A DNA stretch of 64,000 nt, from NCBI GenBank assembly GCA_013336225.1, contig JAAXUC010000003.1, forward strand, positions 9,564 through 73,563. Reading direction: 5' to 3'. The notes beneath the pieces are model-generated. The model searched no databases and was not told the origin of the DNA. It was given only the letters and a program-made list of their open reading frames with translations. The position numbers were made by a program, and so were the translations under genes. Below are positions 6,401 through 64,000 of this stretch, in pieces (within the stretch, counting starts at the first letter, position 1; each line of letters begins with the position of its first letter). The stretch is from Candidatus Moraniibacteriota bacterium. Its GTDB lineage: Bacteria > Patescibacteriota > Minisyncoccia > Moranbacterales > GWC2-37-73.

Positions 6401-9400
6401 ACTGGCGGCAAAACCATTACCCTGACTCTAAATTCAGGCACTTGCACGATTGCAGAATCTATTTTAAATAGCAATGTGGCCACTTGTCAGTATGCAATCG
6501 GCGCAGATGAAGAAACTCCGGTTGGGGAAAAATTGAAACTCGCAGCTCCATTTGTTGCTGCCAGCACTGCCATCACAGATGGTTTTGCCAATACTCTGAC
6601 CAATTTCACTCCAGCCGCCAATCTGGACGCTGCTACCAATATTGTCATTGATAATATTGCTCCAACTGCCAATGACTTGACTGACATCATCACTAAAGAC
6701 CAATTCACTTCAGCCAATCTTAATGCTCAAGATTCAGACGGTTCAGGCATCGCCAGTTACGCTTGGTCAAAAGTTTCCGGACCTGGCACTATCACTTTTG
6801 GTTCAAGCACTGCCAGTGAAACAACGATCAGTGCCAACACAGATGGGCCATATGTTTTGCAAGTTGTCATCACTGACAACTCAGGCAATGCCATCACTAA
6901 AACTCTAAACTTGATTTGGGATACAACCAATCCGGCTAACATTTCCAAACCAAATGTGCCAAGTCTGACCAATGACAACACTCCCAACATCACTTGGGAT
7001 CAATTCACTGACGCCAATGGCCTTGAAAAATATGAGGTGCAAAGAAAGACTGACACAGTGGGTGACAATTTTGCCACCATCCAAACAATCACTGATACCG
7101 CCACACTGGAAACTGCCAACCCAACCTTCACTGAAAGCACACTGGCTGATGATACATATTTCTATCAAATCATCGCCACTGACAAAGCTGGCAATGTCCA
7201 GACAAGTCCAGCTTCAGATGCCATGACGGTGGACACGATTGCTCCAACCCTTTTGTATTTCTATTCAACCTCTCCTGACTCAACCGTGCTGGACCCAACC
7301 GCTTCAGGCAACATCAATTTAGTGGCTGTCTATGACGAAGCAGTGAACACCGGAAATGTGCAGGTGAGAGTGGGACCAATGAGCGCCACAGTTAATGTCA
7401 CTTTGGATCAAGTTCTGGAAACAACCAAACTGCAAGGTAGCTTTACTATTGGTGCTCCAAGAACAGGCTATGACACCACACCTGATCCGCTTAAGATTGA
7501 ACAAATCTTGGCGCAATCAGTGAGCGATCAAGCTGGTAATGTCCAAGCTCAAACTCTGGCTACAATTGAAGACAATATGAACTTGGTAGCGCGCGGAAAT
7601 TCAATCATCATTGACACCACCCCGCCGATTCTCAACAGCTTCACCATTGAAAACAACAGTGTCACTGCTTTCAAACAACAAAACAATGCTTTCACTTTGG
7701 TGGCCAATTACAACAAAACTATTCAAGCAGGTGGCAACTTGAAAGTGAAACTCAACACTGGCTCAAGCTCACCTGAAATCACTTTGACCAACTCTGCGGC
7801 CGGCAAAAAACTGACAGCTTCCTACAGCGTCCAGGCAGATGAAAATGCCAATGACTTGAAAGTGGAAGCTGTGCTGGAACAAAATGTGCTGGATGGCAAA
7901 GGAGCTCCTGCAAACTACATTGGAAATATTTTGGATGGAACGTATGCAGCTAATGCTGGAGACCCAGTGATTAATCTTGCCGGTTTCCAAGTTGACACTG
8001 CTGCTCCGACATTGGGCGCAACGCCAATTGCGATTCAAAACAGCAATGGTAAAACCAGTGATTCAACTCCAACCATCACTTTAAGCGCCACTGATAACTT
8101 CAATCTTTCCAAAGCCATATTCTCACTCAATAGTGGAACTGCTTGGTGCGCTCCGATTTCATACGGCACTGCAATTAACACTTTTGACATCACCAGCATT
8201 GCTTGCGGGGGAAGTGCGACTAATGGCATTAAAACTGTGACTGTTAAATTTGTTGATGCGGCTGGCAATGAAAGTGCAGCTTCCGCTGCCAGTGTGGAAT
8301 TTGATGATTCCAAACCGCAACTGCAAACCATCACCACCGATACAATCACTGGAATTTATGGCCCAGGCACTGTCATCAAAATCATTGCCACTTACGATGA
8401 AGCAATTACTAGTGGAAGTCTCAGTTTGATTTTGAACAATGGAAAACAATTGAATCTGAGCACCATTGAAAATGGTAATACACTCACAGCAACCTACACA
8501 GTTGGAGATTTGCTTGAAGACACCAATAAATTGAAAGTGGCAACCATTGTTTCGCAAAGCGTTGCTGACACTTCTGAACCTGTTAATACCCAGGATTCAA
8601 CCAGTCTTGCCGGCATCACTGAGAATCTGGACACCAACAAGACAGTTGAGATTGACACCACTGCTCCAGCGGCAACAGTGACCGTTGACCGCTCCAAAGA
8701 TAACAATCAAATTCATCTTGATGCCACTGACAAAAACTCTGCCAACATGCAAGCTGAGATTTTAGTGTTGGAGTCAGAAACAGGAACTTGCAGCTTCACC
8801 AATAACTGGATTTCCTATGCTGACAATGTGGACACAACTTTGATTGAAAATACTGCCAGCTCCAGAAAAGTTTGTGCTCGCTTCAAAGATGAGTTGGGCA
8901 ATGTTTCAAATGAAATTGCAGTTATCATTCCCGAAACTCCAAGTGGAGTTCAAATCGATGACATTTCCAACAGTGAAATTCCATTTTATGGTTCCATGCT
9001 GACTTGGTCCATTCCAACCATCAAAGGAACCAACAATGGATCTGGCGATGCTTTTGCTCAATATGAAATCGCCAAATGTGGTCCAAGTGAAAGTGAAGAA
9101 TGCACTCCTGATTTTGCGCAGTTCACCAGCATCACTGACATAAGCAGGAACTACTTTGTCAGTGACAATCTCACTGCCGAAAAATTCTATTGCTATCAGA
9201 TGCGTTTCAAAGACATGCATGGAGACTATTCCAAACTTTCAAAAAACACTTGTTTCCAAGCAGGTCATGCTCCAGCAGTGACTGATTCGCAAGTTTCAAT
9301 CATTTCAGGAAATCCTGATGACATTCAGATTGGAAATGTGACCGAACAAGGTGCAACTGTCTTTTTTCAAACCAAAGATTCTAAATACAACCGCCCAATA

Positions 9401-11185
9401 GCTACCAAAGCTCAAATAGAAGTATTCACCAGTCCAACCTTGAGTGCTGACACCTTGGTGGCAACAACTCCGATTGAATCAGAATTTGCAGTGGTGCACA
9501 CCATTCATCTTTCTGGACTTACCAGTGGCACTCAATATTATCTCAAAATCACCGCCACTGATTCCTCAACCGCTGACAATGAGGGTCGAACCGGTGTTCT
9601 TGCTTATAGTGCTGATGGAATTCCAACTCTGTCTTTCTCCACTCTTGGCACTCTTAAAACCATCAGCAATATCGATGAATCAATCGTCACTGATTCCAAG
9701 GCTGTCATTACATTTGTCACCGACCAAGATGCTAAATGTTACATTGACTTTAAGGACTCGCTCAGTGCAACCTATAATGATCTCTCAGACAGTTTGGAAA
9801 AAGATTTCTATAAGAATCATTCCATCACACTGACGCAGCTTCTTTCCAAGACAGCCTATGACTACAAGATTTCTTGTATCGATAAAAATGATGTCACAGT
9901 GACAGCTGATGAACATCACTTCACAACAACTGAGAAAGGTTTAACTCAAGGTGATGTGGATGCTCAATCTGACAATACTGCTCCTGTGATCAGCAGTATT
10001 TCTCTGGACAAAGTGACAGGGGAAAGCGCCACCATCACTTGGAACACGGATGAGGCGGCGAATAGTCTTATCTTATATGAAGTTGAAGGCTCAGATTTTA
10101 CGATAGTGGCTGGCGATGCAATTGTGATTTCTGACATTAAGGAATATGCAACAACTCATTCAGTGGCCATCAATAATTTGATTCCTGCAACAAAATACAC
10201 CTTCATTTCAATGTCAACTGACACAGGCGGAAATATTGCGCAGTCTTCGCAATCATCATTCACAACCAAGCAACCATCTGGTCTTTCCTCGGTGAAAGTT
10301 GTTTCCAAAGCTCTTGGACAAGCCACAGTGACCTGGACAACAGGACAAGCGGTTTCATCCTTAGTGGAATATGGGCTAACCACGGGATATGGGGATAAAA
10401 AAGAGAGCAATACAAAAGTAAAAGAACATGAGATTACAATAACTGACCTTAAGGCTGGTGAAGAATATCATTTGCGCGTCAAAGGAACGAGTGACGCTGG
10501 TGAACTTTTTGCATCCTCCGACATTACTTTCCAGCCCAAGGCTCCTCCAAAAATTTCAGATTTCAAGATTGATGAAATTACAGAACACGGCGCAACTGTG
10601 AAATTCAACACCAATGTTCCAACTGATTCACTGATAACCTATACCGATGCTGATAAAGAAGAAAATTCAGGCTTTCAAGGAAAACCAGAAGTTGCAACCA
10701 AACATGAAATGCAACTCAAAAACATGGAAAGTGGAAGAACGTATGGAATTAAGTTGAAAGTTCGCGATGAAGAAGGCAATGAAACTGAAGAAACTTTCCA
10801 GAATTTCACCACTACTAAAGACGAGAAACCTCCAGTGATCGATCGCGTCAAAACTGATGCAGCCTTGACCCAAACTGACAAAGTTCAAGCCATCATCTCT
10901 TGGACCACTGATGAAATGTCCACCGGAGAAGTGATTTACAAAGAAGGAAAAACAGGAGACGAAAAGAAATTTGAAGTGAACAGTTCTCCAAGTTTCTCAC
11001 ACATCGGAGTCATCACCAGTTTCAAAGCTGGCGTCGTGTATTACTTCAAAGTCAAATCAATTGATCAGGCTGGCAACGTTGCCAATTCAACTGACTACGC
11101 TGTGCTTACTCCCAAGAAAAGACAAAACATCATTCAGGTCATCATTGGAAACTTCACCGACATCTTCGGTTGGGCTAAGTTTTAG
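3440..11185 (+). CDS. Giant (2581 aa) surface protein: signal/anchor, 6-bladed NHL-repeat beta-propeller, Gly-rich region, many Ig/Fn3-like domains
   Basis: Single uninterrupted ORF. The N-terminal hydrophobic segment is ISILVFLLCANMSSAA. There are six ~40-aa NHL-type repeats (…LYVSDSGNNRILKRSADGTTWT…), a Gly-rich block (GGGGGSGACVSS…) and repeated Big/Fn3-like modules. The C-terminal 600 aa is paralogous to CDS 1..1813. Confidence 0.85.
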   Translation: MNKVKMKKIAKQEFDSVKKKLFSLGIISILVFLLCANMSSAAVNSATYDSAIKSFAGVPSPTYETMSWVSSDGRQGDLLAGVNLIISGLSPTTMTPYGVAVDSINNLYVVDYGNNRILKRSEDGTTWTNITISGLALNSFNSPFAVATDSVDNLYVSDSGNNRILKRSADGTTWTEITISGLTPSTFSNPNGTALDSIGNLYVSDSGNNRILKRSADGTTWTDIVISGLTPSTFSNPRDVKIDSSGVLYVADTTNNRILRRSADGTTWTNITISGLTPSTFNLPYRVTVDSSDNLYVSDLNNNRILKRSADGATWTKITITELTPGTFSQPVGLAIDRKGALYVGDYGNGRVIKLYSGTSITMRVRTGNATMSNAAAWSSSCDVASSGANIGIENPCVRSGDQYVQYQAILSTDVGINTPSLSSVTIATQTTYAQSFLNLISSPFNTGNANNSVQKITWSASNDAGSDPAQGTVQFQLRTSPDNVTWGQWCGPTACDAAPGGGVSDFYTDKAGATAINVAQKDSNGDQWIQYATFLKSNDGTTTPTLSNVTMQYAYNVPPAITIDSNPANLKQTSTGTFQVPYTLSETYDDLGVIAHGTAAAPIKALLFYQPKNDVTLNGATPSGQSTTAVTKIWGVGGTDGNTAAGNYTFTVPAGVTNIRDIELAGGGGGSGACVSSVLGGDGGASTLTYASLSRGVASGGTGSGYDGSVDACTTGNDSTATNIIGGVNTAGAGANGSTLGGGKGGLISGGSLAVTPGSQVNLIVGAGGIAATGGTAGNMGWIKITYDVTSEGAQTTGLVSINNPSNVPIPSTGSMLIDNELMTFDSVGATGNQRNITGRAATFATSYSTTAVSHTTSSPIFFATSASIQTIDTLIETDTPGAQATINNTFIWDPRADATNNLSGNKLDGALFKVVANDADASNFNTIGQSATTGAQTIDLQAPTITSITTDEAHTATGANILYLNKNSAQIPLTVNFSENISFDATGGKTITLTLNSGTCTIAESILNSNVATCQYAIGADEETPVGEKLKLAAPFVAASTAITDGFANTLTNFTPAANLDAATNIVIDNIAPTANDLTDIITKDQFTSANLNAQDSDGSGIASYAWSKVSGPGTITFGSSTASETTISANTDGPYVLQVVITDNSGNAITKTLNLIWDTTNPANISKPNVPSLTNDNTPNITWDQFTDANGLEKYEVQRKTDTVGDNFATIQTITDTATLETANPTFTESTLADDTYFYQIIATDKAGNVQTSPASDAMTVDTIAPTLLYFYSTSPDSTVLDPTASGNINLVAVYDEAVNTGNVQVRVGPMSATVNVTLDQVLETTKLQGSFTIGAPRTGYDTTPDPLKIEQILAQSVSDQAGNVQAQTLATIEDNMNLVARGNSIIIDTTPPILNSFTIENNSVTAFKQQNNAFTLVANYNKTIQAGGNLKVKLNTGSSSPEITLTNSAAGKKLTASYSVQADENANDLKVEAVLEQNVLDGKGAPANYIGNILDGTYAANAGDPVINLAGFQVDTAAPTLGATPIAIQNSNGKTSDSTPTITLSATDNFNLSKAIFSLNSGTAWCAPISYGTAINTFDITSIACGGSATNGIKTVTVKFVDAAGNESAASAASVEFDDSKPQLQTITTDTITGIYGPGTVIKIIATYDEAITSGSLSLILNNGKQLNLSTIENGNTLTATYTVGDLLEDTNKLKVATIVSQSVADTSEPVNTQDSTSLAGITENLDTNKTVEIDTTAPAATVTVDRSKDNNQIHLDATDKNSANMQAEILVLESETGTCSFTNNWISYADNVDTTLIENTASSRKVCARFKDELGNVSNEIAVIIPETPSGVQIDDISNSEIPFYGSMLTWSIPTIKGTNNGSGDAFAQYEIAKCGPSESEECTPDFAQFTSITDISRNYFVSDNLTAEKFYCYQMRFKDMHGDYSKLSKNTCFQAGHAPAVTDSQVSIISGNPDDIQIGNVTEQGATVFFQTKDSKYNRPIATKAQIEVFTSPTLSADTLVATTPIESEFAVVHTIHLSGLTSGTQYYLKITATDSSTADNEGRTGVLAYSADGIPTLSFSTLGTLKTISNIDESIVTDSKAVITFVTDQDAKCYIDFKDSLSATYNDLSDSLEKDFYKNHSITLTQLLSKTAYDYKISCIDKNDVTVTADEHHFTTTEKGLTQGDVDAQSDNTAPVISSISLDKVTGESATITWNTDEAANSLILYEVEGSDFTIVAGDAIVISDIKEYATTHSVAINNLIPATKYTFISMSTDTGGNIAQSSQSSFTTKQPSGLSSVKVVSKALGQATVTWTTGQAVSSLVEYGLTTGYGDKKESNTKVKEHEITITDLKAGEEYHLRVKGTSDAGELFASSDITFQPKAPPKISDFKIDEITEHGATVKFNTNVPTDSLITYTDADKEENSGFQGKPEVATKHEMQLKNMESGRTYGIKLKVRDEEGNETEETFQNFTTTKDEKPPVIDRVKTDAALTQTDKVQAIISWTTDEMSTGEVIYKEGKTGDEKKFEVNSSPSFSHIGVITSFKAGVVYYFKVKSIDQAGNVANSTDYAVLTPKKRQNIIQVIIGNFTDIFGWAKF
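3725..4505 (+). repeat. Six ~120-bp direct nucleotide repeats inside the CDS, encoding the NHL blades
   Basis: Segments such as caataatagaattttaaagcgtagtgcggatggcacaacctggac recur with ~120-bp period. Confidence 0.7.
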
Positions 11186-11828: not shown

Positions 11829-12004
11829 GGGTATTAATACCCCAGGGCAAGCCCTGGACCCTTTGGGCTCACGAGGCAAGACACGTCGCTCGCGAGCGAA
11901 CATGTCAAGCCTCGAGGTATTAAACCTTTTGGTATCGTCGCTCACCGCCAGCTGGCGGACGGAAATGATTGTCTGCTGACAAATCATTTCGCTCGTTTCG
12001 CTAG
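11829..12004 (+). other. GC-rich multi-hairpin intergenic element (possible structured ncRNA or stability element)
   Basis: Consecutive hairpins: gggtattaataccc, cagggcaagccctgg, gtcgctcgcgagcgaac, ccgccagctggcgg, gaaatgattgtctgctgacaaatcatttc. GC is much higher than in the flanks. Confidence 0.3.
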
Positions 12005-12034
12005 ATAATAAAAAATATCTTTAGCAGTATTTGC

Positions 12035-12066
12035 AAAAAACGTTCACAATGAACGTTTTTTGTTTT
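12035..12066 (+). terminator. Rho-independent terminator
   Basis: aaaaaacgttcacaatgaacgttttttgtttt. Confidence 0.7.
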
Positions 12067-12151
12067 ATCGATTGACTAAAAAGGCAAATAGCTGTAAAGT
12101 ATAGGATGCACGATAAGATTCTTTTAGGGCTAGAAATAGCCAAAAATTCCT

Positions 12152-14502: not shown

Positions 14503-14612
14503 AATTTCGAATTCTGAATTTCGAATTTCGAATCAAGCTTGAATGATTGAATGTTTAAAAAATTAAAACATTAAAAATTCATTCAAAATTCAAAATTGGA
14601 AATTTAAAATTA
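14503..14612. repeat. AT-rich imperfect palindromic element built from heptamer repeats (gaatttc x3 … aattcaaaattcaaaatt); family X copy 1
   Basis: Near-identical copy at 61488..61595 and a degenerate copy at 40020..40078. Confidence 0.7.
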
Positions 14613-27102: not shown

Positions 27103-28332
27103 ATGAAATTTATAGATTTATTTAAATTATCAACCCGCATGTTTAAAGCGAGAACTTCTCGAACGCTTTTGACTGTATTGGGTATGAGTATTGGTATTGC
27201 TGCTATTTTGTTTTTGGTTTCTTTGGGATATGGACTGCAAAAAACTTTGCTCGAAAGAATCACCACCTCTGATTCTCTTTTAACGCTGGATATTTCCGAG
27301 GCGAAGTCTGGCATTGTTTCTCTCAATACTGATATGATCAAAAAAATCCAGGAAATGTCTGGAGTGGAAGAGGTGAGTCCAGCTTTTCAAATCACCACAC
27401 AGGGGCATTTGGATGATTTGTCTGCAGATTTGGTCACCATTGGTTCTAAGCCTTCTTTTTTGAAATTAGGAGGATATAAACCAAGTAGTGGCGTGCTGCT
27501 CAGCGATGACAATCAAAATGGAATCGTGATCAGTAGCGCAGTGGGACAAGTTTTTGGGAAAACTGTGGAGGAAATGCTTGGAAAGGAAATGACTTTTTCA
27601 TTTTTCGTGCCAAGAAACGCTCCTGCTGTTGATGATGCTGGCAATACTTCGGATGCTCAACCCCAAAGTGATTTTGAGAAAATAAATTCCACGGTCACAT
27701 ATAAAATTGTGGGAGTTATTGATGGCGAGGATAATGTGGTCTATGTGAACATGTCATCGCTGGATGATTTGAAAATTGATAAATATGGACAAGTTAAGGT
27801 AAAAACTAGCTCCAATGGGGAAATGGGTATAATCAGGGATGCAATTTTGGAATATGGCTTGCTGGTTTCATCTCTATCAGACACTGTTGATCAAGCAAAT
27901 CAAATCTTTAGAGTTGTGCAGATCATTTTGATGTTGTTTGGAGTTGTTGCTTTGGTGGTTTCCGCTATTGGTATGTTCAACACCATGACCATCACCTTGC
28001 TTGAAAGAACGGAAGAAATTGGAATCATGAAATCAATTGGAGCTTCTGATTTTGGAATTTCGGTGATGTTTTTCATGGAATCTGCCATCATGGGATTCTT
28101 GGGCGGATGCGCCGGAGTTTCCATTGGTTGGTTGGGAGGATTAGGATTCAACACCATTATTAACATGGTTGCGGTGAGATTTGGCGGTCAGACAGTGAGT
28201 CTTTTCTATAGCCCTGCTTGGTTCGTGCTTTCAATTCTGGCTTTTTCTGGAGTGGTGGGATTTTTGACTGGACTTGTGCCAGCACGTCGCGCCAGCAAGA
28301 TTGATCCCTTGGACGCTCTACGATACAAATGA
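27103..28332 (+). CDS. ABC transporter permease, FtsX/MacB-type
   Basis: An N-terminal TM, a large extracytoplasmic domain, and a C-terminal FtsX-like 3-TM bundle. The last residues are …PARRASKIDPLDALRYK. Confidence 0.8.
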   Translation: MKFIDLFKLSTRMFKARTSRTLLTVLGMSIGIAAILFLVSLGYGLQKTLLERITTSDSLLTLDISEAKSGIVSLNTDMIKKIQEMSGVEEVSPAFQITTQGHLDDLSADLVTIGSKPSFLKLGGYKPSSGVLLSDDNQNGIVISSAVGQVFGKTVEEMLGKEMTFSFFVPRNAPAVDDAGNTSDAQPQSDFEKINSTVTYKIVGVIDGEDNVVYVNMSSLDDLKIDKYGQVKVKTSSNGEMGIIRDAILEYGLLVSSLSDTVDQANQIFRVVQIILMLFGVVALVVSAIGMFNTMTITLLERTEEIGIMKSIGASDFGISVMFFMESAIMGFLGGCAGVSIGWLGGLGFNTIINMVAVRFGGQTVSLFYSPAWFVLSILAFSGVVGFLTGLVPARRASKIDPLDALRYK

Positions 28333-28333
28333 A

Positions 28334-28424
28334 AATGTATTTTGTATGATGTATTTCGTATTTCGTATGAATTCAAAATGCATTTATACAAAATACTAAA
28401 TACTGGATACGATATACAAAAGAG
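28334..28424. repeat. AT-rich palindromic element of the gtatttc/atacaaa heptamer family (family Y)
   Basis: gtatttcgtatttcgtatg … catttatacaaaatactaaatactggatacgatatac. Relatives at 38338..38395 and 61838..61884, and inside miaB at 58788..58892. Confidence 0.65.
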
Positions 28425-28495
28425 CTTAATGATTGCTCTTTTTTGTTATTTGGGGATATAATATTAAAAGCATATAAATAGAACATGCAATCTTT

Positions 28496-36408: not shown

Positions 36409-37458
36409 ATGGATATTAAAAAACTCGAAAATTTTTTGCAAGAAAATAACTTGCCCAAGTTTCGTCTGGGGCAAATTCAAAAAGCCATCTTTACTGATGG
36501 AGCTTTCTCATTTTCTGAAATTACCACTTTATCAAAAGAACTCCGAGAAAAAATGGAAAGTCAGTTGCGGTTGCTTTCCTTTGAAACTGAAAAAGTTTTA
36601 GTGGCTAAAGATGGGCAATCCATCAAGGCACTTTTGAAATTGCATGATGGAGATTTGATTGAAACCGTTTTGATCGCTCCCAAGCCTGGCATTTGGTCTG
36701 CTTGCATCTCTTGCCAAGTTGGTTGCGCAATGGGCTGTCGGTTTTGTGCAACTGGCAAAATGGGATTTAAGCGTGACCTGACTGCTGAAGAAATCACTGA
36801 TCAAGTTTTGTTTTGGAGGCAATATCTGAAACTAAAAGCTAAAAGCGAAAAGCTAAAAGCTGAGGAAGTTTCCACCATTGTATATATGGGAATGGGGGAG
36901 CCTTTTAATAATTGGGATAATGTTTCTGAGAGTATTAAAAATCTGACAGATGAAAAATTGTTTGGTTTCGGCTCGCGCTCAATTTCTGTTTCAACTTCTG
37001 GCATTGCAAGTGGGATTGAAAGAATGGCCAATGAGTTTCCTCAGATCAATCTGGCAATTTCATTGCATTTTGCCAGTGACAAAAAACGCGATCTCTATAT
37101 GCCAGTCAATAAGAAAGACAATTTGGAATCTTTAAAAAATGCACTGAAGGGATATTTCACCATCACCAATCGCAAAGTATTTTTGGAATATATCATGCTG
37201 GATGGAATTAATGACACCGCGCTAGATGCTAAAATGCTGGCAGATTTCATTTATTCCATTGGCAGCACTCATCTTTTACATATGAATCTGATTCGCTACA
37301 ACATGACCAGCGATCCGCCAGCTGGCGGACTGCAGCCTTCTTCCAAAACCAGAACGCAAATTTTCAAGCAGGAATTAGAGAAGCATCAGGTGCATGCCAC
37401 CATTCGAAAAAGTCTCGGCGAAGAAATTAAGGCAGCCTGTGGACAGTTAGCCTCTTAG
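36409..37458 (+). CDS. rlmN: 23S rRNA (A2503-C2) / tRNA methyltransferase RlmN (radical SAM)
   Basis: GCAMGCRFCATG radical-SAM motif and the conserved distal Cys. It contains an in-frame 9-bp tandem repeat insert (36829..36864; KLKAKSEKLKAEE). Confidence 0.85.
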   Translation: MDIKKLENFLQENNLPKFRLGQIQKAIFTDGAFSFSEITTLSKELREKMESQLRLLSFETEKVLVAKDGQSIKALLKLHDGDLIETVLIAPKPGIWSACISCQVGCAMGCRFCATGKMGFKRDLTAEEITDQVLFWRQYLKLKAKSEKLKAEEVSTIVYMGMGEPFNNWDNVSESIKNLTDEKLFGFGSRSISVSTSGIASGIERMANEFPQINLAISLHFASDKKRDLYMPVNKKDNLESLKNALKGYFTITNRKVFLEYIMLDGINDTALDAKMLADFIYSIGSTHLLHMNLIRYNMTSDPPAGGLQPSSKTRTQIFKQELEKHQVHATIRKSLGEEIKAACGQLAS

Positions 37459-38307: not shown

Positions 38308-38406
38308 AATGATGAATATTAAATATTTAAGTTTAAGATGTATTTATACGAAATACAAAATACGAGATACAAAATACATTATACTTTCTTTATTTATATC
38401 ACGAAA

Positions 38407-41659: not shown

Positions 41660-42472
41660 ATGACAATTTTTCAAGCAATTTTCTTGGGAGTCTTGCAGGG
41701 GTTGGGGGAATTTTTGCCAATCTCATCCACGGCACATTTGATTTTGCTGCCCTGGTTTTTTGGTTGGGATGATCCTGGCCTTTCTTTTGATGTGGCTTTG
41801 CATGTCGGAACTTTGGTTGCAGTGGTGGCATTTTTTTGGCGCGACTGGCTTACTATTTTTCAGCTTTCGCTTCAAAAAATTTCAAATTTCAAATTTCAAA
41901 TTTCAAATTCTGAGGCGTACCCGCCTCAGTTGCTCTGGCTCTTGGTTATTGCCTCGGTGCCTGGGGCAATTTTTGGATTCATGCTGGACAATAAAGCGGA
42001 GGAAGCTTTTCGTAGTCCATTGCTGGTTGCATTTACACTTAGTGTGGTTGGTCTCGTTTTGTTTTTGGTTGATAAATATGCCATACATCGCAAGGAAATT
42101 GGAGCCATCACCAAAAAGGATGCACTTTTGATTGGTTTGTCACAAGCAATTGCCATTATTCCAGGCGTGTCACGTTCTGGCGCAACCATGACAACTGGAC
42201 TTTTCTTAGGTTTGTCGCGCGAGCAAGCCGCGCGTTTTTCTTTCTTGCTTTCTACCCCGATCATTTTTGGGGCAGCGATAGTGAAAGTACCTCAGCTATT
42301 CAGGGCTGGAATTACCATGCCGCTATTGTTTGGAATCCTGGCTGCCGCCATCAGTGGCTATTTCGCCATTAAATATATGTTGAAATTTATTGCGAAAGTT
42401 GGATACGCACCTTTCTTTTACTACAGAATTGTTTTGGCTGGCTTAATTGTATTGGTGTATTTCATGAAATAA
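41660..42472 (+). CDS. uppP: Undecaprenyl-diphosphatase (BacA/UppP)
   Basis: GEFLPISSTAHLIL signature, 270 aa. It contains an in-frame heptanucleotide repeat tract (41875..41910). Confidence 0.85.
   Translation: MTIFQAIFLGVLQGLGEFLPISSTAHLILLPWFFGWDDPGLSFDVALHVGTLVAVVAFFWRDWLTIFQLSLQKISNFKFQISNSEAYPPQLLWLLVIASVPGAIFGFMLDNKAEEAFRSPLLVAFTLSVVGLVLFLVDKYAIHRKEIGAITKKDALLIGLSQAIAIIPGVSRSGATMTTGLFLGLSREQAARFSFLLSTPIIFGAAIVKVPQLFRAGITMPLLFGILAAAISGYFAIKYMLKFIAKVGYAPFFYYRIVLAGLIVLVYFMK
41875..41910 (+). repeat. Tandem 7-bp repeat (aaatttc x ~4.5) inside the uppP coding sequence
   Basis: aaaaaatttcaaatttcaaatttcaaatttcaaattc encodes KISNFKFQISN. The unit length is not a multiple of 3. Confidence 0.8.
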
Positions 42473-43059: not shown

Positions 43060-43087
43060 CATTTTCAGATAAATTTATTATTATTAA

Positions 43088-43148
43088 ATTAACGAATTAT
43101 GAATTAACGAATTCTAAATCCGTTAATCCGTTAATGCGTTAATAAGTA
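43088..43148. repeat. AT-rich palindromic element of the (c)cgttaat repeat family
   Basis: aattaacgaatt…aatccgttaatccgttaatgcgttaat. A related tract is at 52322..52360 (gttaatgcgttaattcgttaat). Confidence 0.55.
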
Positions 43149-47269: not shown

Positions 47270-47393
47270 CGAAAAAATCCAAAATCCAAATTACAAATGT
47301 CAAATAAAGTTCCAATGACTTAATGACAAAATTTAGATTTAGGATTTCGGATTTTATTTGACATTGAGATTTTAGATTTGAGATTTATTATTT
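47270..47393. repeat. AT-rich palindromic element (aaaatccaaattacaaa heptamer family) in the L11–L1 spacer
   Basis: aaaatccaaaatccaaattacaaatgtcaaataaa … tttatttgacattgagattttagatttgagattt. The motif aaaatccaaattacaaa recurs at 42556. Confidence 0.55.
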
Positions 47394-55417: not shown

Positions 55418-56359
55418 TCATTTTTTCAAAAATTTTGCAACTTCGTTTTCAATCCCCGAATAATTCTCAATCCAAATAATTTCTTTGTTTCGCTTGAGCC
55501 AGGTCATTTGACGCTTGGCATAGTGAATGATGTCGAAATATAGCTTCTCACGCATTTCCTTTTCCGAAATTTGATCTTGCAAAAAGCGTGAAACCCAGCG
55601 ATATTCCAAGCCGATGCGTTCCATCCATTGCCAAGTCGTGCCATTTTCGTGAAGGCTTTGAACTTCAGTAATCATGCCTTCATCGAAACGCTCATCAAGG
55701 CGTTTTTGAATTTTTTCGTTCAATTCTTTTCGTTCAATTTTTATTCCAATTTGCAAGAAGTTATATTCCTTATTTGATGCTCCATGCTCCATGCTCCATG
55801 TCTTGTGATTGGGCACCTTGCCAATTGCTTTGCAAATTTCAATTGCGCGCACGAGACGCACTTTGTTTTTGCTGTCGATATTATTGGCGCGCTCTGGGTC
55901 AAGTTTTTGCAATTGTAAAAAAAGCTCTTCCAGACTTTGTTTTTCAAGAATTTCTCGTAGTTCAGGATCGGGTGCAACTTCTGGAATGCTGACATTTTTG
56001 ACTACTGCATCAATCCAAAATCCTGTGCCGCCGCAAATGATTGGAACTTTTCCTTTGCCAAGAATTTCAACAATGGCTTTTTCGGCTAATGTTTTGAAGT
56101 GCGAAACATTGAAATCCTCCATCGGATCAGCCACATCAATCAAATGATGAGGAATTTTTTCTGATAAAAATACCTCACGCTTCATGCTCCATATTCCAGG
56201 AACCTTGCCCGTCCCAATGTTCATTTTGCGATAAACTTGTCGGCTATCGGCAGAAATAATTTCACCATTGAATTTCTTGGCAAGTTCAAGAGCCGCACTG
56301 GATTTTCCAGAGGATGTTGGTCCCATGACAACTATTATTTTTGATACTTGTTTTTGCAT
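55418..56359 (-). CDS. miaA: tRNA dimethylallyltransferase
   Basis: IIVVMGPTSSGKSSAALELAKKFNGEIISADSRQVYRKMNIGTGK. The ORF is open to 56638, but the N-terminal 93 aa are low-complexity and overlap the REC gene, so I prefer the start MQKQVSK. Confidence 0.8.
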   Translation of the reverse strand: MQKQVSKIIVVMGPTSSGKSSAALELAKKFNGEIISADSRQVYRKMNIGTGKVPGIWSMKREVFLSEKIPHHLIDVADPMEDFNVSHFKTLAEKAIVEILGKGKVPIICGGTGFWIDAVVKNVSIPEVAPDPELREILEKQSLEELFLQLQKLDPERANNIDSKNKVRLVRAIEICKAIGKVPNHKTWSMEHGASNKEYNFLQIGIKIERKELNEKIQKRLDERFDEGMITEVQSLHENGTTWQWMERIGLEYRWVSRFLQDQISEKEMREKLYFDIIHYAKRQMTWLKRNKEIIWIENYSGIENEVAKFLKK

Positions 56360-57823: not shown

Positions 57824-59239
57824 CTAATTTAGTTTAGCCTCCAGATTCCAAATATTGGCCTTGGTGATTTGAACTTTGATTATTTTGCCGAGCAGATCTT
57901 TTTTCTTTGACTCAACTTTCACATTCTTTTGTGTCCTAGTCTTTCCAAAGTAGGAACCATTTTTTTCTTTTTCAATAATCACTTCCATTTTTTTTCCAAC
58001 ATATTTTTTATTATTAGTGAAGGCTGTTTTTTTGAGAATTTCATTGAGAAAATTTTCACGTCTGAATTTTTCAGCTTGGGAAACATCATCTTTTAAGCCC
58101 CAAGCCACTGTTTCTGGGCGAGGAGAAAATTGTCCAAAAAAGACCATGTCATATTTTGTTTTTTCCATCACTGTGGCAGACTGGAGAAATTGCTTCTTTG
58201 TTTCACCTGGAAAACCTACGATAATATCAGAAGAAATTGAAAATAAAGCAGCTGGTTTATGTTTCTTGAAAGCAGATTTTATTTTCCTGATTCTTGCCAG
58301 GTAATGTTTTTGGGTGTATTTGCGATTCATTCTGCGCAAAATTTCATCATCTCCAGCTTGCACAGGAAGGTGAATCCATTCGCAAACTTTTTTGAGCTTA
58401 GCAATGTTTTCAATGAGTTCATCACTCATATCCTTGGGGTGTGAGGAGACAAATTGAATCCAAAATTTTCCAGGAATGGCATTGATTTTTTTGAGTAATT
58501 CAGTGAATGTTAATGCTTTTGCTCCATGTTTCATGCTCCATGTTCCATGATAAGAATTTACATTTTGTCCGAGCAATGTAATGCTTTTGTATCCTCTCGC
58601 AATCAGATCTTTAACTTCTGTGATGATTTCTTCAGCAGGCCGAGAAACTTCACGTCCCCGGGCATTCGGCACTACACAATATGAACAGAAATTGTTGCAT
58701 CCAGTCATGATTGGAACGTAGGCGGAGAATGCGCTTTGATATTTTGGGTTTATTGATAAGTAATCTATTTTTTCTTTACTTAGGATATTTTTCGTATTTC
58801 GTATTTCGTATTTCATCCCTAGGATAAGCTTGGGGCAAATATTTTGTATTTTTGAATTCATATGAGATACGTCATACAAGATACAAGATACGGATTCAGG
58901 AAAGTTTTTGATTTCACAAAAAAGATCAACCTTAGTTTTCATGCGTTTTTGCACATCGGCTCGATTGGCCAGGCAGCCTGTCATAATGATAGCTTTTAGC
59001 TTCTGGCTTTTAGCTTTTAGCTCAGCTTTGCGCAAATTGTTGATCATGCTGTAGGCGCGATTTTCTGCGGTTTGTTTGATACCGCAAGTATTGAAAATGA
59101 CCAAGTCAGCATCCTGGATTTTTTCAGTTAAAGAAAAACCTTGCTCTTCCAAGAAAGTTGCGATGCGCTCACTGTCAGAAACATTCATTTGGCAGCCGAA
59201 AGTTTTGATGAAATATTTCATAAATCTGCAATGATTCAA
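57824..59239 (-). CDS. miaB: tRNA-i6A37 methylthiotransferase (MiaB-type radical-SAM MTTase)
   Basis: MTTase N-domain (IKTFGCQMNVSDSE), radical-SAM CNNFCSYCVVP, and a TRAM C-terminus. It contains two in-frame repeat insertions (58788..58892 and 58990..59027). Confidence 0.85.
   Translation of the reverse strand: MNHCRFMKYFIKTFGCQMNVSDSERIATFLEEQGFSLTEKIQDADLVIFNTCGIKQTAENRAYSMINNLRKAELKAKSQKLKAIIMTGCLANRADVQKRMKTKVDLFCEIKNFPESVSCILYDVSHMNSKIQNICPKLILGMKYEIRNTKNILSKEKIDYLSINPKYQSAFSAYVPIMTGCNNFCSYCVVPNARGREVSRPAEEIITEVKDLIARGYKSITLLGQNVNSYHGTWSMKHGAKALTFTELLKKINAIPGKFWIQFVSSHPKDMSDELIENIAKLKKVCEWIHLPVQAGDDEILRRMNRKYTQKHYLARIRKIKSAFKKHKPAALFSISSDIIVGFPGETKKQFLQSATVMEKTKYDMVFFGQFSPRPETVAWGLKDDVSQAEKFRRENFLNEILKKTAFTNNKKYVGKKMEVIIEKEKNGSYFGKTRTQKNVKVESKKKDLLGKIIKVQITKANIWNLEAKLN
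58788..58892. repeat. Family-Y AT-rich palindromic element inserted in-frame inside miaB
   Basis: ttcgtatttcgtatttcgtatttca … gagatacgtcatacaagatacaagatacgg. It encodes ~35 extra aa (…GMKYEIRNTKNILSKEKIDYLS…) in the linker before the radical-SAM core. Confidence 0.7.
58990..59027. repeat. 9-bp tandem repeat (gctaaaagc family) in-frame in miaB; the same repeat occurs in rlmN at 36829..36864
   Basis: agcttttagcttctggcttttagcttttagctcagc (minus strand: ELKAKSQKLKA). rlmN has aaactaaaagctaaaagcgaaaagctaaaagc (KLKAKSEKLKA). Confidence 0.7.
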
Positions 59240-61487: not shown

Positions 61488-61595
61488 AAAATTTCGAATT
61501 TCGAATTTCGAATTTTGAATCAAATCTGAATGATTGAATGTTTAAAAATTTAAACATTGGAAATTCATTCGAAATTCAAAATTGGAAATTAAAAA
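61488..61595. repeat. AT-rich palindromic element, family X copy 2
   Basis: aaatttcgaatttcgaatttcgaattttgaatcaaatctgaatgattgaatgtttaaaaatttaaacattggaaattcattcgaaattcaaaattggaaatt; ~90% identical to 14503..14612. Confidence 0.7.
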
Positions 61596-61837
61596 TTATT
61601 AAATAAAAAAAGTACCATCAAATAAGAGAATAGGAAAATTATAAACTTTCCACATCGAGACTCTTGATTTACACCAAGGGTGGTTCCACTCGATTTCCCG
61701 TATTATTTGGGCACTTTGTGCGCTTATTTGTAAGCAGCTTAAACAGAGATTTTTTGCGAGTTGGTAATTCGCATCTCATTTCATTGTGTCTATAGTATAC
61801 AAAATATTATATAAAAAGCAAGTTTTTAAAATTGAAT

Positions 61838-61884
61838 TTTTTCGTATTCATACAAAATACAAAATACAAAATACGGGATACGCG
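61838..61884. repeat. Family-Y heptamer tract (atacaaa x3, atacggg, atacgcg)
   Basis: ttcgtattcatacaaaatacaaaatacaaaatacgggatacgcg, directly 3' of the dnaE stop. Confidence 0.6.
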
Positions 61885-61885
61885 A

Positions 61886-64000
61886 TTAAGCTAGTTCTGC
61901 ATTTCCGCCTTGGACGAGTTTTTTTATTTCTGTCAGCACATCTGGATGATGCTCAATTGAAAATGGCGTCTCAAGTTTATTGGCTTGATGATGCAGGAAA
62001 ACTTTGCAGGAACCAATCGTGCAAGTATTGAAAAATTTGGAAAGATTGTGAATGATTTCCGGGGTGGCATTTGGAGGAAGGGTGACAATTAGTCTATTAA
62101 ATTGATTTGAATTTTGATTATTGGTTTCTGATGCATGATGACTTTCGGCAATTACGCCACTGCCGCCTTGTTGATTGTGATCATCATTATTTTCATCACT
62201 ATCATCTTTCACCCCGTAAGTTTTCTTGGTTGCTTCCACGCGCAAATAGTTTTCAATTTCACCGCGGTTAAGTTCTTTGGCTTCATCAACAATGAGTTTG
62301 TAGACACCATCTTTGTCAGACAATCTGCCTTCAGCAATGATCATGCGTTCTTCTTCCCAAACACTGCCCATGCGCTCAAGAACTTTTGGAAAAACCAAAA
62401 CTTCAATTTTTCCTTTAGTGTCTTCAAGCATCACAAAAAGCATGGTTTCTTGCCGCTTGGTGAGAATTTTTTGAATTTTTTGAATTACTCCGCCAACGGC
62501 AATTTTTTGTCCAACCAATTCGGGAGTCAATTTGTCCAATGAAACTGCAACCTTGTCGATATATGCTTGATATTCTTTCACTGGATGTCCGCTGACATAG
62601 AGTCCAAGCAGTTCTTTTTCCCATTGCAATTGTTGTCTTTTGGAAGCAGGATCAACTTCAAGCAGCGGCACTTGCGGCGTTTCTAAAATGGCTTCGCCAA
62701 ATAGGCTGACCTGATTGGAGTTTTTGGATTTCTGCACACTCTTGGTGAACATTAAAATTTGTTCCATGCTTTGCACAATTTGATTTCTTTCGCCAAGCTC
62801 ATCAAGTGCGCCAACCTTTGCCAAGGCATCGATGGATTTTTTGTTGAGATCTTTCGTTTCAACTCTTTCCAAAAAGTCTCCCAGTGATTTGAATTTTCCA
62901 CCGCGCTTTCGCTCGGCCACGATTTCATGGGCAATCACGTGACCCACATTTTTGATTGCATTAAATCCGAAGCGAATATTTTCGCTTCCATCCGCATTTT
63001 CAATCACAGCAAAATCCTCAAAACTTTCATTCACGTTTGGTGCCAAAACTTTGATTCCCATGTCATGGCATTCAGCAGCTTCAATGGCGATGCGATCAAT
63101 GTTGTCCTGATCAGACGTTTGCAAGGCAGCCATAAATGCGGCAGGGTAGTGAGCTTTGAGATAGGCTGTTTGATATCCAATGATTGCATAGCAAGCGGCA
63201 TGCGAGCGATTGAAACCATAGCCAGCAAAAGGTTCAATGAAAGAGAAAACCTTTTCGGCAATTTCCTTGGTGCTGCCATTGGCAACACAGCCTTCCACAA
63301 ATTTAATTTTTTGTTCCTTAATCAATTCAAAAATTTTCTTACCCATCGCTTTGCGCAGCACATCAGCTTCGCCCATAGTGAAGCCTGCCAAATCACGAGC
63401 GATCTGCATCACTTGTTCTTGATACACAGCCACGCCGTACGTGTTTTTCAAAATCGGCTCCAATTTAGGATGAACATATTTAATTCTGCGTCCGTGTTTG
63501 CCGGAAATAAAATCAGGAATCCAATCCATTGGTCCTGGACGATAGAGTGCCACCATCGCAATGATGTCTTCAATGATGGTTGGTTTAAGCAATTTCAAAT
63601 AGCGTTTCATGCCGGAACTTTCAAATTGGAAAACTCCAGTGGTGCGTGCTTGTTGAAAAAGTTCATAGGTTTTGGCATCATCAATTGGGATGGTGTCAAT
63701 GTCAATATCAACTCCCTTGGTTGCTTTGACAATGCGCAAAGTGTTTTGAATGATGGTGAGATTTTTCAGTCCTAAAAAGTCCATCTTGAGTAGTCCAATT
63801 TTTTCCACATAAGAAGATTTGGTGGAGCAGGAATATTGCGTCACTGTTCCTTCGCGCGAACCAGTGATGTTTTGAATGGGGGAATAATAGGTGACAGGTT
63901 CCTTAGTGATCACTACGCCGCAGGCATGCATGCCAGCATGACGAACCACGCCTTCTAGGCGCATAGCACTGTCAATGAGTTTTCGTGCATCAGTACTTCC
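61886..64000 (-). CDS. dnaE: DNA polymerase III alpha subunit (C-terminal ~700 aa; gene continues beyond the window end)
   Basis: …GYGFNRSHAACYAIIGYQTAYLKAHYPAAFMAALQT…, with fingers/thumb and an OB-fold region. The ORF is open at the window edge. Confidence 0.9.
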   Translation of the reverse strand, partial: GSTDARKLIDSAMRLEGVVRHAGMHACGVVITKEPVTYYSPIQNITGSREGTVTQYSCSTKSSYVEKIGLLKMDFLGLKNLTIIQNTLRIVKATKGVDIDIDTIPIDDAKTYELFQQARTTGVFQFESSGMKRYLKLLKPTIIEDIIAMVALYRPGPMDWIPDFISGKHGRRIKYVHPKLEPILKNTYGVAVYQEQVMQIARDLAGFTMGEADVLRKAMGKKIFELIKEQKIKFVEGCVANGSTKEIAEKVFSFIEPFAGYGFNRSHAACYAIIGYQTAYLKAHYPAAFMAALQTSDQDNIDRIAIEAAECHDMGIKVLAPNVNESFEDFAVIENADGSENIRFGFNAIKNVGHVIAHEIVAERKRGGKFKSLGDFLERVETKDLNKKSIDALAKVGALDELGERNQIVQSMEQILMFTKSVQKSKNSNQVSLFGEAILETPQVPLLEVDPASKRQQLQWEKELLGLYVSGHPVKEYQAYIDKVAVSLDKLTPELVGQKIAVGGVIQKIQKILTKRQETMLFVMLEDTKGKIEVLVFPKVLERMGSVWEEERMIIAEGRLSDKDGVYKLIVDEAKELNRGEIENYLRVEATKKTYGVKDDSDENNDDHNQQGGSGVIAESHHASETNNQNSNQFNRLIVTLPPNATPEIIHNLSKFFNTCTIGSCKVFLHHQANKLETPFSIEHHPDVLTEIKKLVQGGNAELA

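Follow-up and report, generated by a model that had tools for sequence, protein, structure and literature searches.

A dispersed hairpin repeat residing in frame in the miaB gene of a Moranbacteria genome, with its periodic tetramers conserved at all codon positions

Introduction

The palindromic elements of Rickettsia (RPEs) are small repeats of ~100-150 bp, which reside between genes and also in frame within unrelated housekeeping genes, the encoded peptide being compatible with the fold of the host protein (PMC10969869). In this study we analyse a hairpin element located in frame within the miaB gene of Candidatus Moraniibacteriota bacterium, in a stretch of 64,000 nucleotides (contig JAAXUC010000003.1 of assembly GCA_013336225.1, positions 9,564 to 73,563; hereafter the window). 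An earlier inspection of the letters alone (the sequence-only reading) had noted an AT-rich palindromic repeat in this gene, had assigned it to one family with three intergenic sites, and had taken it for part of an active, proliferating family that selection tolerates only where the frame is preserved.

Several other types of short repeat resemble such an element in one respect or another. Heptanucleotide repeats (the STRR of cyanobacteria, and the TAACTGA repeat of Beggiatoaceae, Cyanobacteria and Bacteroidetes) are mostly intergenic and often placed at start or stop codons, while a minority lies inside open reading frames (ORFs), at the periphery of the proteins (PMC4679880). [quoted passage not shown] Coxiella QMITE1/2, ERIC and Correia elements, are short and non-autonomous, frequently lie at gene 3' ends, overlap ORFs in some cases, and can act as hotspots for additional insertions (PMC5896051; PMC10969869). 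REPs and REPINs, as outlined in PMC3733652, are GC-rich extragenic palindromes of 20-40 bp with a GTAG or CGTC head, mobilised by RAYT proteins. In PARCELs, which are mobile within and between genomes, the repeat is coding and its DNA shows dyad symmetry (PMC2996958). Our search of the open-access literature brought up no account of such elements for the Candidate Phyla Radiation (CPR, Patescibacteria), which is no proof of their absence.

The results presented below lead us to hold, with moderate confidence, that the miaB segment is one copy of a dispersed hairpin repeat, lodged in frame in the linker of MiaB, inherited vertically and maintained because of some property of its nucleic acid. 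The added interest of this element is its conservation at synonymous sites, together with the hotspot behaviour of the MiaB loop in which it resides.

The hairpin element and its host gene

The miaB gene (57824..59221, minus strand) is a single uninterrupted ORF including its stop codon. The product carries the Pfam domains UPF0004 (residues 2-99), Radical_SAM (169-348) and TRAM (405-464), with the hairpin segment enclosed in the same frame. It has 465 residues counted from the ATG at 59221, a start that agrees with the N-termini of orthologs and with the deposited Moranbacteria MiaB P0001, to which the product is 100% identical; the 471 residues of the sequence-only reading result when a TTG further upstream is taken as the start. 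In the ortholog alignment C46, C83, C175, C179 and C182 are invariant; the gene is intact, and all six cluster cysteines are conserved. To our knowledge MiaB is not generally essential, contrary to the mention of "essential genes" in the sequence-only reading.

The element is 105 bp long (58787..58891, minus strand; GC content 0.30), as delimited by its sequence, by ortholog alignments and by a covariance-model match at 58786-58891 (43.9 bits). It encodes MiaB residues ~110-145 (SVSCILYDVSHMNSKIQNICPKLILGMKYEIRNTKN), between the methylthiotransferase (MTTase) N-domain and the radical-SAM core, a frame-preserving position as proposed earlier. Its layout on the coding strand is (GTATNNN)x4, ATAT, GAATTC, AAAA, then (ATACNNN)x5, the actual sequence being GTATCTT GTATCTT GTATGAC GTATCTC ATAT / GAATTC / AAAA / ATAC AAA ATAT / 24-nt insert / GAA ATAC GAA ATAC GAA ATAC GAAAAAT. 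The left arm, i.e. the part preceding GAATTC (58860..58891, minus strand), encodes VSCILYDVSH. The non-repeated centre (58850..58859; TTTTGAATTC on the plus strand) contains the GAATTC palindrome, common to an intergenic copy at 28330-28428 and to most orthologous miaB copies. The right arm (58787..58849, minus strand) consists of five ATAC-type units, one of them degenerate (ATAT), encodes KIQN...MKYEIRNTKN, and is broken by the nested 24-nt insert (58815..58838, +/-~1 nt). This insert supplies the residues CPKLILGM (codons 58814-58837), contains CCTAGG and AAGCTT, forms a small hairpin of its own, occurs once in the window and is missing from all eight orthologous miaB copies.

The palindromic nature of this AT-rich segment was borne out by its inverted arms of period 7 and by its folding, within one unbroken frame. 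Tandem Repeats Finder detected, on the plus strand, (GTATTTC)x3.6 at 58790-58814 with 100% matches and (ATACAAG)x2.6 at 58874-58891; when heptanucleotide repeats are defined by at least three head-to-tail 7-nt units, the first array has 3.6 copies and the second 2.6. When folded, the 111-nt segment gives a long, interrupted hairpin (RNA z = -3.0 for the mRNA strand and -4.1 for the plus strand), with fold energies of -28.6 kcal/mol for the antisense strand vs -20.3 kcal/mol for the mRNA strand, a difference that looks compositional.

The nested insert itself has, at 58817-58835 on the plus strand, a 7-bp hairpin followed by a T-rich run, which resembles an intrinsic terminator antisense to miaB. 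A promoter search inside the element gave nothing, so that this terminator-like hairpin of the private insert, on the antisense strand, was the only signal of that kind encountered there. Small nested inserts were also seen within the arrays of other orthologs (P0020, TLNAPHSDAGGQ; P0022, LPCRQTG; and P0100).

The structure of MiaB was predicted by AlphaFold2 from a 78-sequence alignment, giving a model with a mean predicted local distance difference test (pLDDT) of 85.9 and a predicted template modelling (TM) score of 0.85. Residues 104-120 were modelled as helical with moderate confidence, the left arm thus appearing as a predicted helix extension, and residues 123-150 had pLDDT <50 and no secondary structure, the rest of the model being confident. 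The core superposes on solved MiaB structures (7mjv and related entries) with TM scores of 0.82-0.87, and the stretch that links the N-domain to the radical-SAM core is longer than in the solved B. uniformis MiaB. Residues 123-150 of the element-encoded stretch are therefore predicted to be disordered. Taken together with the matching core and the invariant cysteines, this indicates that the insert behaves, according to the model, as a surface loop of an intact enzyme whose fold is undisturbed.

Dispersed copies of the family

The miaB segment and the intergenic copies belong to one dispersed palindromic family, as had been proposed. The degenerate 18-mer pattern GTATTTYGTATTTYGTAT, with up to 3 mismatches allowed, has 24 matches in the window vs 0.33 expected, and 18 of the 24 fall at miaB and the three intergenic sites named in the sequence-only reading. 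Local alignment of the miaB copy with 28325-28430, spanning the non-repeated core TTTTGAATTCATA, gave z = 11.4 against dinucleotide shuffles; the corresponding values were 7.2 for 61830-61890 and 6.2 for 38330-38400. A covariance model derived from the nine orthologous copies in miaB matched the intergenic site 28330-28428 at full length (63.1 bits, E = 2e-11), a score higher than that of the window's own interrupted miaB copy (43.9 bits).

All three intergenic sites are thus family members, although only one of them is complete. The full-length copy (28330..28428, plus strand; found by covariance model, pattern and alignment) has 5 GTAT units, the GAATTC centre and 5 ATAC units; it begins at the TGA stop codon (28330-28332) of an FtsX-type permease gene, its first GTAT is at 28337, and folD lies downstream. 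The other two, recognised by pattern and alignment, are one-armed: at 38346..38384 a single GTAT is followed on the plus strand by six ATAC units, in the gap between two minus-strand genes, one radical-SAM and the other NUDIX, and at 61850..61881 a single GTAT is followed by five ATAC units, adjoining the stop codon of dnaE.

The 120 metagenome loci retrieved with the family core GAATTCATAYGARATAC proved to be chance matches, none having periodic arms. An element-like peptide query of 49 residues returned only ORFs of 35-86 residues without Pfam domains, and was uninformative about other host genes; the 12 ORFs inspected overlie direct (ATACAAA)n arrays in miscellaneous contigs.

Age of the miaB copy and behaviour of its site

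For comparison we used an alignment of 120 MiaB orthologs and, at the DNA level, nine genomes (the window together with L001 and L204-L210). At least eight other Moranbacteria genomes carry the element in miaB at the same site, with the same junctions, frame, orientation and 5+5 tetramer layout, the identity of MiaB among the nine being ~71%. The longer contigs also share synteny with the window: thrS upstream (L207, L210), a response regulator gene and miaA downstream (L204, L207, L210), and gatB beyond (L204, L207). An assembly artefact can be rejected, since the same architecture appears in eight independent assemblies. Its presence in nine genomes with identical junctions and reading frame shows that the miaB copy is old and not a recent insertion.

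The segment is nevertheless lineage-specific, as had been foreseen, being missing from other Moranbacteria proteins, e.g. L003 (427 residues) and L012 (417 residues), and from the ortholog L009. The closest ortholog, P0002 (81% identity, 434 residues), keeps GAATTC and two ATAC units, and therefore has a shortened remnant and not an empty site. The ~35 extra residues reported earlier are right as a total, but do not stem from one insertion: ~27 come from the element common to relatives, and 8 (CPKLILGM, found in the query MiaB only) from the private nested insert.

Three indel hotspots were recognised in the alignment, at query residues 68-76, 113-148 and 231-233, each coinciding with a heptamer array in the query DNA. 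At the hotspot occupied by the element, the peptide ILYxVSxxNSKIQNTKYKIQNTKN is present in many orthologs, and in other lineages the same site holds unrelated hairpin repeats or nothing. Eight other genomes, for instance, have at this position a second, unrelated family with AAATT cores, which encodes FENWIIENxLKIENxKLKI. Since the element types are interleaved on a rough tree of MiaB orthologs and nested inserts recur, the MiaB loop is best regarded as a shared landing pad.

Two further observations concern this linker. In L013, L015, L022, L028 and L010 (~10300-10500 in each) it contains long, GC-richer in-frame hairpins with fold energies of -28 to -52 kcal/mol, encoding peptides such as VIASVVKQS..., VIPSKVEGS...DSSTPPPSGG, CHSERS...DSSTPLCSAQNDN and YPELVLGS...ILKQVQND; these look like members of repeat families that are widespread and frequently annotated by mistake as small ORFs. 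In addition, the miaB frame of L014 (3043-5538) extends over 831 residues and P0062 has 563, which may represent fusions, read-through or very large inserts.

Such a hotspot might be produced by an active selfish element with a preferred target, i.e. by mobile hairpins that hit the miaB loop repeatedly, the identity of the tetramers reflecting their youth. This is essentially the opinion of the sequence-only reading, and it would account for the different repeat families interleaved in the same loop across lineages, for the small hairpins nested inside arrays, and for the better fit of the intergenic copy than of the window's miaB copy to the ortholog consensus. However, nine genomes with the same junctions, frame, orientation and layout are not what it predicts, and the spacers vary from ortholog to ortholog as well as from one full copy of this genome to the other, which is unexpected for young copies of one master; neither a transposase in the window nor additional copies in the flanks of related loci were found. 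We consider this explanation unlikely. The description of the family as actively proliferating is not supported, in view of an old miaB copy, a total of two full and two half copies seen in 64 kb and the lack of a transposase family match among the window ORFs.

Conservation of the nucleotide sequence

The argument for an old copy maintained for its nucleic acid is carried by codon positions. Inside the element, pairwise identity among the nine genes amounts to 0.64 at the amino-acid level and to 0.77/0.84/0.77 at codon positions 1/2/3, whereas in the rest of miaB it is 0.71 for amino acids and 0.75/0.84/0.48 for the three positions, the best window of equal size elsewhere in the gene reaching 0.55 at third positions. 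This conservation is concentrated in the tetramers, with values of 0.92/0.94/0.96 in tetramer columns and 0.48/0.68/0.57 in spacer columns, and 79 of the 90 tetramers of the nine copies are intact. The 4-nt cores are constant, while the 3-nt spacers vary among units and orthologs, and also distinguish the two full copies of this genome. The choice of tyrosine codons follows the arm: TAT is used in 8 of 8 cases on the left and TAC in 8 of 9 on the right, the gene-wide ratio of TAT to TAC being 83:58. The AAATT-core family behaves similarly, with third-position identity of 0.81 inside vs 0.45 outside.

A neutral insert in a disordered loop would lose its cores at the synonymous rate, and a function of the protein would not keep third positions, which together point to selection on the tetramers. 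The simplest reading of these alignments would be that purifying selection acts on the tetramers themselves, i.e. on the nucleic acid rather than on the peptide. The proposal that the element is merely tolerated fits poorly with GTAT and ATAC tetramers conserved whatever their codon position, far above the synonymous sites elsewhere in miaB.

The loop could instead be a lineage-specific functional module of MiaB, such as a docking or regulatory segment, adapted at the protein level. The recurrent peptide of the orthologs and the helix modelled at residues 104-120 are compatible with this, but such a module would hardly be expected to show equal conservation of all codon positions with an amino-acid identity below that of the rest of the protein, or an arm-dependent choice of tyrosine codons. 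It also accords badly with the low-confidence, unstructured residues 123-150 of the model, with sister lineages that have unrelated peptides or lack the segment altogether, and with the presence of the same DNA between genes. We disfavour this possibility and regard it as very improbable.

Maintenance of a vertically inherited hairpin repeat for its nucleic acid has to be weighed against several observations, all of which speak against it. Base-pair covariation was not above that of slid controls, the tetramer pairs being invariant and the spacers mostly unpaired, and we therefore do not claim that a hairpin structure is selected. Periodic sequences align in any register, and the "identity" measured inside the element thus denotes retention of the periodic tetramers. 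No pair of an empty and a filled site was found among close relatives, so that neither a target-site duplication nor an insertion event can be demonstrated; the element-free orthologs are too diverged from the window miaB for such a comparison. Copies are few (two full and two half in the 64-kb window, with diverged spacers), and no further full-length copy was detected in 1.34 Mb of related loci, including their flanks. The ~50 ORFs of the window (64 kb scanned) gave no transposase or Y1/RAYT-type Pfam match, and Rfam 15 recognised only two tRNAs in the whole window and nothing significant in 58700-59000, even at E values up to 10. Finally, purifying selection could be mimicked if the copy were continually overwritten from others, or by repeated site-specific re-insertion; the divergence of spacers, seen among orthologs as well as in the two full copies of this genome, argues against both.

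The arms do pair in register in 78.8% of cells vs at most 55.6% when the partners are slid. Wobble pairs would be more numerous on the antisense strand (33 cells vs 11), a strand asymmetry that we dropped as a signal because the C and A frequencies look independent, which suggests that it is compositional. A T-box-like string upstream of thrS (GGGTGGTTCC) was likewise dismissed, being on the wrong strand and without an Rfam match.

A possible history of the element

If the miaB segment is indeed a vertically inherited copy kept for its nucleic acid, its history may be pictured as follows. A small, dispersed, AT-rich repeat, in which a GAATTC centre separates five GTAT tetramers, spaced 7 nt apart, from five ATAC tetramers, would have entered the MiaB linker in an ancestor of a clade of Moranbacteria and been inherited vertically since. 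The ribosome would read through it, adding a stop-free stretch of ~36 residues, the first third of which probably extends a helix and the remainder of which would form a disordered surface loop without affecting the enzyme fold. All that the host would require is a length that is a multiple of three and freedom from stop codons. The element itself would be kept for a property of the nucleic acid, its tetramers being fixed in any codon position and its 3-nt spacers free to drift. The likeliest such property may lie in short helices of 4 bp that make up a hairpin or cruciform, or in periodically arranged binding sites for an oligomeric protein that recognises DNA or RNA, although any molecular function of the tetramer array is speculative. 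The site would serve as a permissive landing pad, which elsewhere accommodates unrelated hairpin repeats, small nested hairpins (like the 24-nt insert found here) or nothing. We infer that the element originated by insertion of a non-autonomous hairpin element, and that array lengths presumably changed by slippage, with only stop-free multiple-of-three variants surviving.

Other heptamer arrays in the window and related loci

The period of 7 nt is not confined to this element. Scanning of the window and 80 related miaB loci (1.36 Mb) for tandem arrays of periods 4-13 with at least 14 net matched positions yielded 52 arrays of period 7 and no more than 5 of any other period. Of these 52, 36 lie wholly inside long ORFs, and 36 different units are represented among them. 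Random metagenome contigs likewise favour period 7, at approximately one third of the density, in line with what has been published on heptanucleotide repeats (PMC4679880). Building of the heptamer units around 4-nt palindromes was considered as a further regularity, but was dropped (15 of 36 vs 12 expected, p = 0.12).

Two more arrays are in frame in miaB itself, both coinciding with indel hotspots of the orthologs: CATGNNN units at 58514..58549 (minus strand), encoding GTWSMKHGAKA, and AGCTAAA units at 58990..59029 (minus strand), encoding KAELKAKSQKLKA, the former being placed after the conserved NVNSY. Related units occur in other genes of the window. In rlmN, (CTAAAAG)x4.3 at 36832-36861 (plus strand) uses the same AGCTAAA-type unit as miaB 58990-59029 and encodes LKLKAKSEKLKA, an insertion of 11 residues relative to solved Cfr/RlmN. 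In miaA, CATGGAG-type arrays at 55778-55804 and 56171-56197 (minus strand), which share their unit with miaB 58514-58549, encode KTWSMEHGA and GIWSMKREV, respectively, both insertions relative to solved MiaA. In uppP (41877-41909, plus strand), the gene for undecaprenyl-diphosphatase, a perfect (AAATTTC)x4.7 array encodes ISNFKFQISN in frame in a loop, with a 5-residue insertion relative to E. coli UppP. In L007, L082, L002, L006 and L025, heptamer arrays of the ATAC type or of other types occupy the corresponding positions of miaA.

The abundance of such arrays raises the possibility that the miaB element is a local microsatellite, whose arms arose de novo by slippage (perhaps with template switching between them) and whose likeness to the intergenic sites is convergent. 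In many prokaryotes no long simple repeat is commoner than the heptanucleotide type, whose origin has been attributed to polymerase slippage (Mrazek 2007, as related in PMC4679880). The diversity of units among the 52 arrays, the lead of period 7 in random metagenome contigs and the orthologous arrays of the third hotspot, which differ by single changes throughout the array (e.g. TGGAGCA and TGGAGCG), are all in keeping with this origin. It leaves unexplained, however, why the copies share a non-repeated centre and flanks, and why the 5+5 layout is retained in nine genomes and in the intergenic copy. Moreover, the nine orthologous copies do not show the homogeneity of units expected from slippage: tetramers are constant and spacers differ within an array, the opposite of what homogenisation predicts. 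A purely local origin is in our opinion distinctly improbable, and descent of the miaB element from a dispersed hairpin repeat is preferred.

Several other repeats of the window deserve mention. A second hairpin family is represented by two copies (14503-14611 and 61490-61597) with AATTTCG-type units, the centre AATGTTTAAAAATTTAAACATT and ATTCAAA/AAATT units, filling intercistronic spacers directly upstream of the start codons of an M16 peptidase gene and thrS, respectively; it resembles the AAATT-core element that is in frame in miaB of other genomes. A heptamer-armed hairpin (AAAATCC vs GGATTTT/AGATTT units) at 47270-47390 fills the rplK-rplA spacer from the rplK stop codon. The only clear case of period 8 consists of paired arrays, AATTAACG x3.5 followed by AATCCGTT x3.4 (43087-43143), between genes for a CsoR-type repressor and a thioredoxin-reductase-like protein. 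Longer tandem repeats comprise a 141-nt repeat (3896-4400) in the gene of a predicted surface protein of 2581 residues with NHL, PKD and Fn3 repeats (3440-11185), and a 115-nt repeat (1796-2084) at the 3' end of an Fn3/Ig-domain ORF (2-1813), which extends into the following spacer. One random metagenome contig (L192) contains four heptamer arrays within 5564-5753 and 11915-12094, two of which (11915-11944 and 12068-12094) are TCAGTAA, a rotation of the TAACTGA repeat of Beggiatoaceae and cyanobacteria.

Significance and relation to known elements

Palindromic repeats lying in frame in housekeeping genes have been regarded as peculiar to Rickettsia; the present case extends them to the CPR, where several unrelated hairpin families use the same protein loops. 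The conservation of the miaB copy at synonymous positions across species is unexpected for tolerated junk, and points to a DNA or RNA signal overlapping the coding sequence. It suggests a route by which streamlined genomes could place regulatory or structural elements where intergenic space is scarce, and bears on the question of why 7 nt is a favoured tandem period in prokaryotes. There are also consequences for annotation, since loops derived from repeats are part of CPR proteins, and the intergenic arrays give rise to calls of spurious small ORFs.

A broader proposal, which we put forward only tentatively and with rather low confidence, is that the CPR (Parcubacteria/Moranbacteria) may carry periodic-core hairpins, with cores of 4-5 nt every 7 nt in inverted arms, as functional nucleic-acid signals that are selected even in the coding frames of RNA-modification and other housekeeping enzymes, protein loops being the shared landing pads for such dual-coded signals. 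An oligomeric protein that binds DNA or RNA could use them as platforms, or they could be processing or structural hairpins. Ring-shaped RNA-binding proteins that act on periodic arrays of short motifs are exemplified by TRAP, with its (G/U)AG repeats, and HutP, with UAG repeats. A short conserved core, a fixed spacing and non-conserved spacers are common to those arrays and to the element described here, which offers an analogy for the mode of action and implies no membership; in contrast to them, the array in miaB is paired with a reverse-complement array and forms part of a coding sequence, and its binder is only putative.

Among palindromic repeats, REPs and REPINs differ from the miaB element, which is 105 bp long and intragenic, has a GC content of only 0.30 and GTAT-periodic arms, and is accompanied by no Y1/RAYT-type match in the window. 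Inverted repeats are shared with MITEs (five GTAT units against five ATAC units), though here whole arms and not the termini alone are inverted, and neither a target-site duplication nor, in the 64-kb window, a related insertion sequence was found. PARCELs likewise combine a coding repeat with dyad symmetry of the DNA; they are, however, 25-residue tandem domains in surface proteins of unknown function and not single hairpin inserts in the loops of housekeeping enzymes.

The 7-nt period links the element to the STRR, LSSR and TAACTGA repeats, and in these loci too it dominates over other periods. Those repeats are direct arrays of one identical unit, whereas the miaB element consists of two inverted arrays with conserved 4-nt cores, free 3-nt spacers and a unique centre. 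A further difference from STRR and LSSR is that the arrays of this study occur in internal loops of conserved enzymes, most of them being inside long ORFs, and the TAACTGA unit does not appear in the element family, whose units are GTATTTC/ATACAAG and relatives.

The closest resemblance is to RPEs, and the comparison drawn in the sequence-only reading is apt. The element is palindromic, its 105 bp with inverted arms fall within the RPE size range, copies are found both in frame (miaB) and between genes (28330-28428, with halves at 38346 and 61850), and the encoded segment is predicted to be a surface loop that does not disrupt the fold. We know of no report of synonymous-position conservation across species for RPEs. 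The present element is set apart from them by phylum and architecture, and not by sequence scoring: its host is a metagenome-assembled CPR/Moranbacteria genome, its arms are arrays of tetramers with a 7-nt period, several unrelated hairpin families occupy the same MiaB loop, and the miaB copy is conserved across species at synonymous positions.

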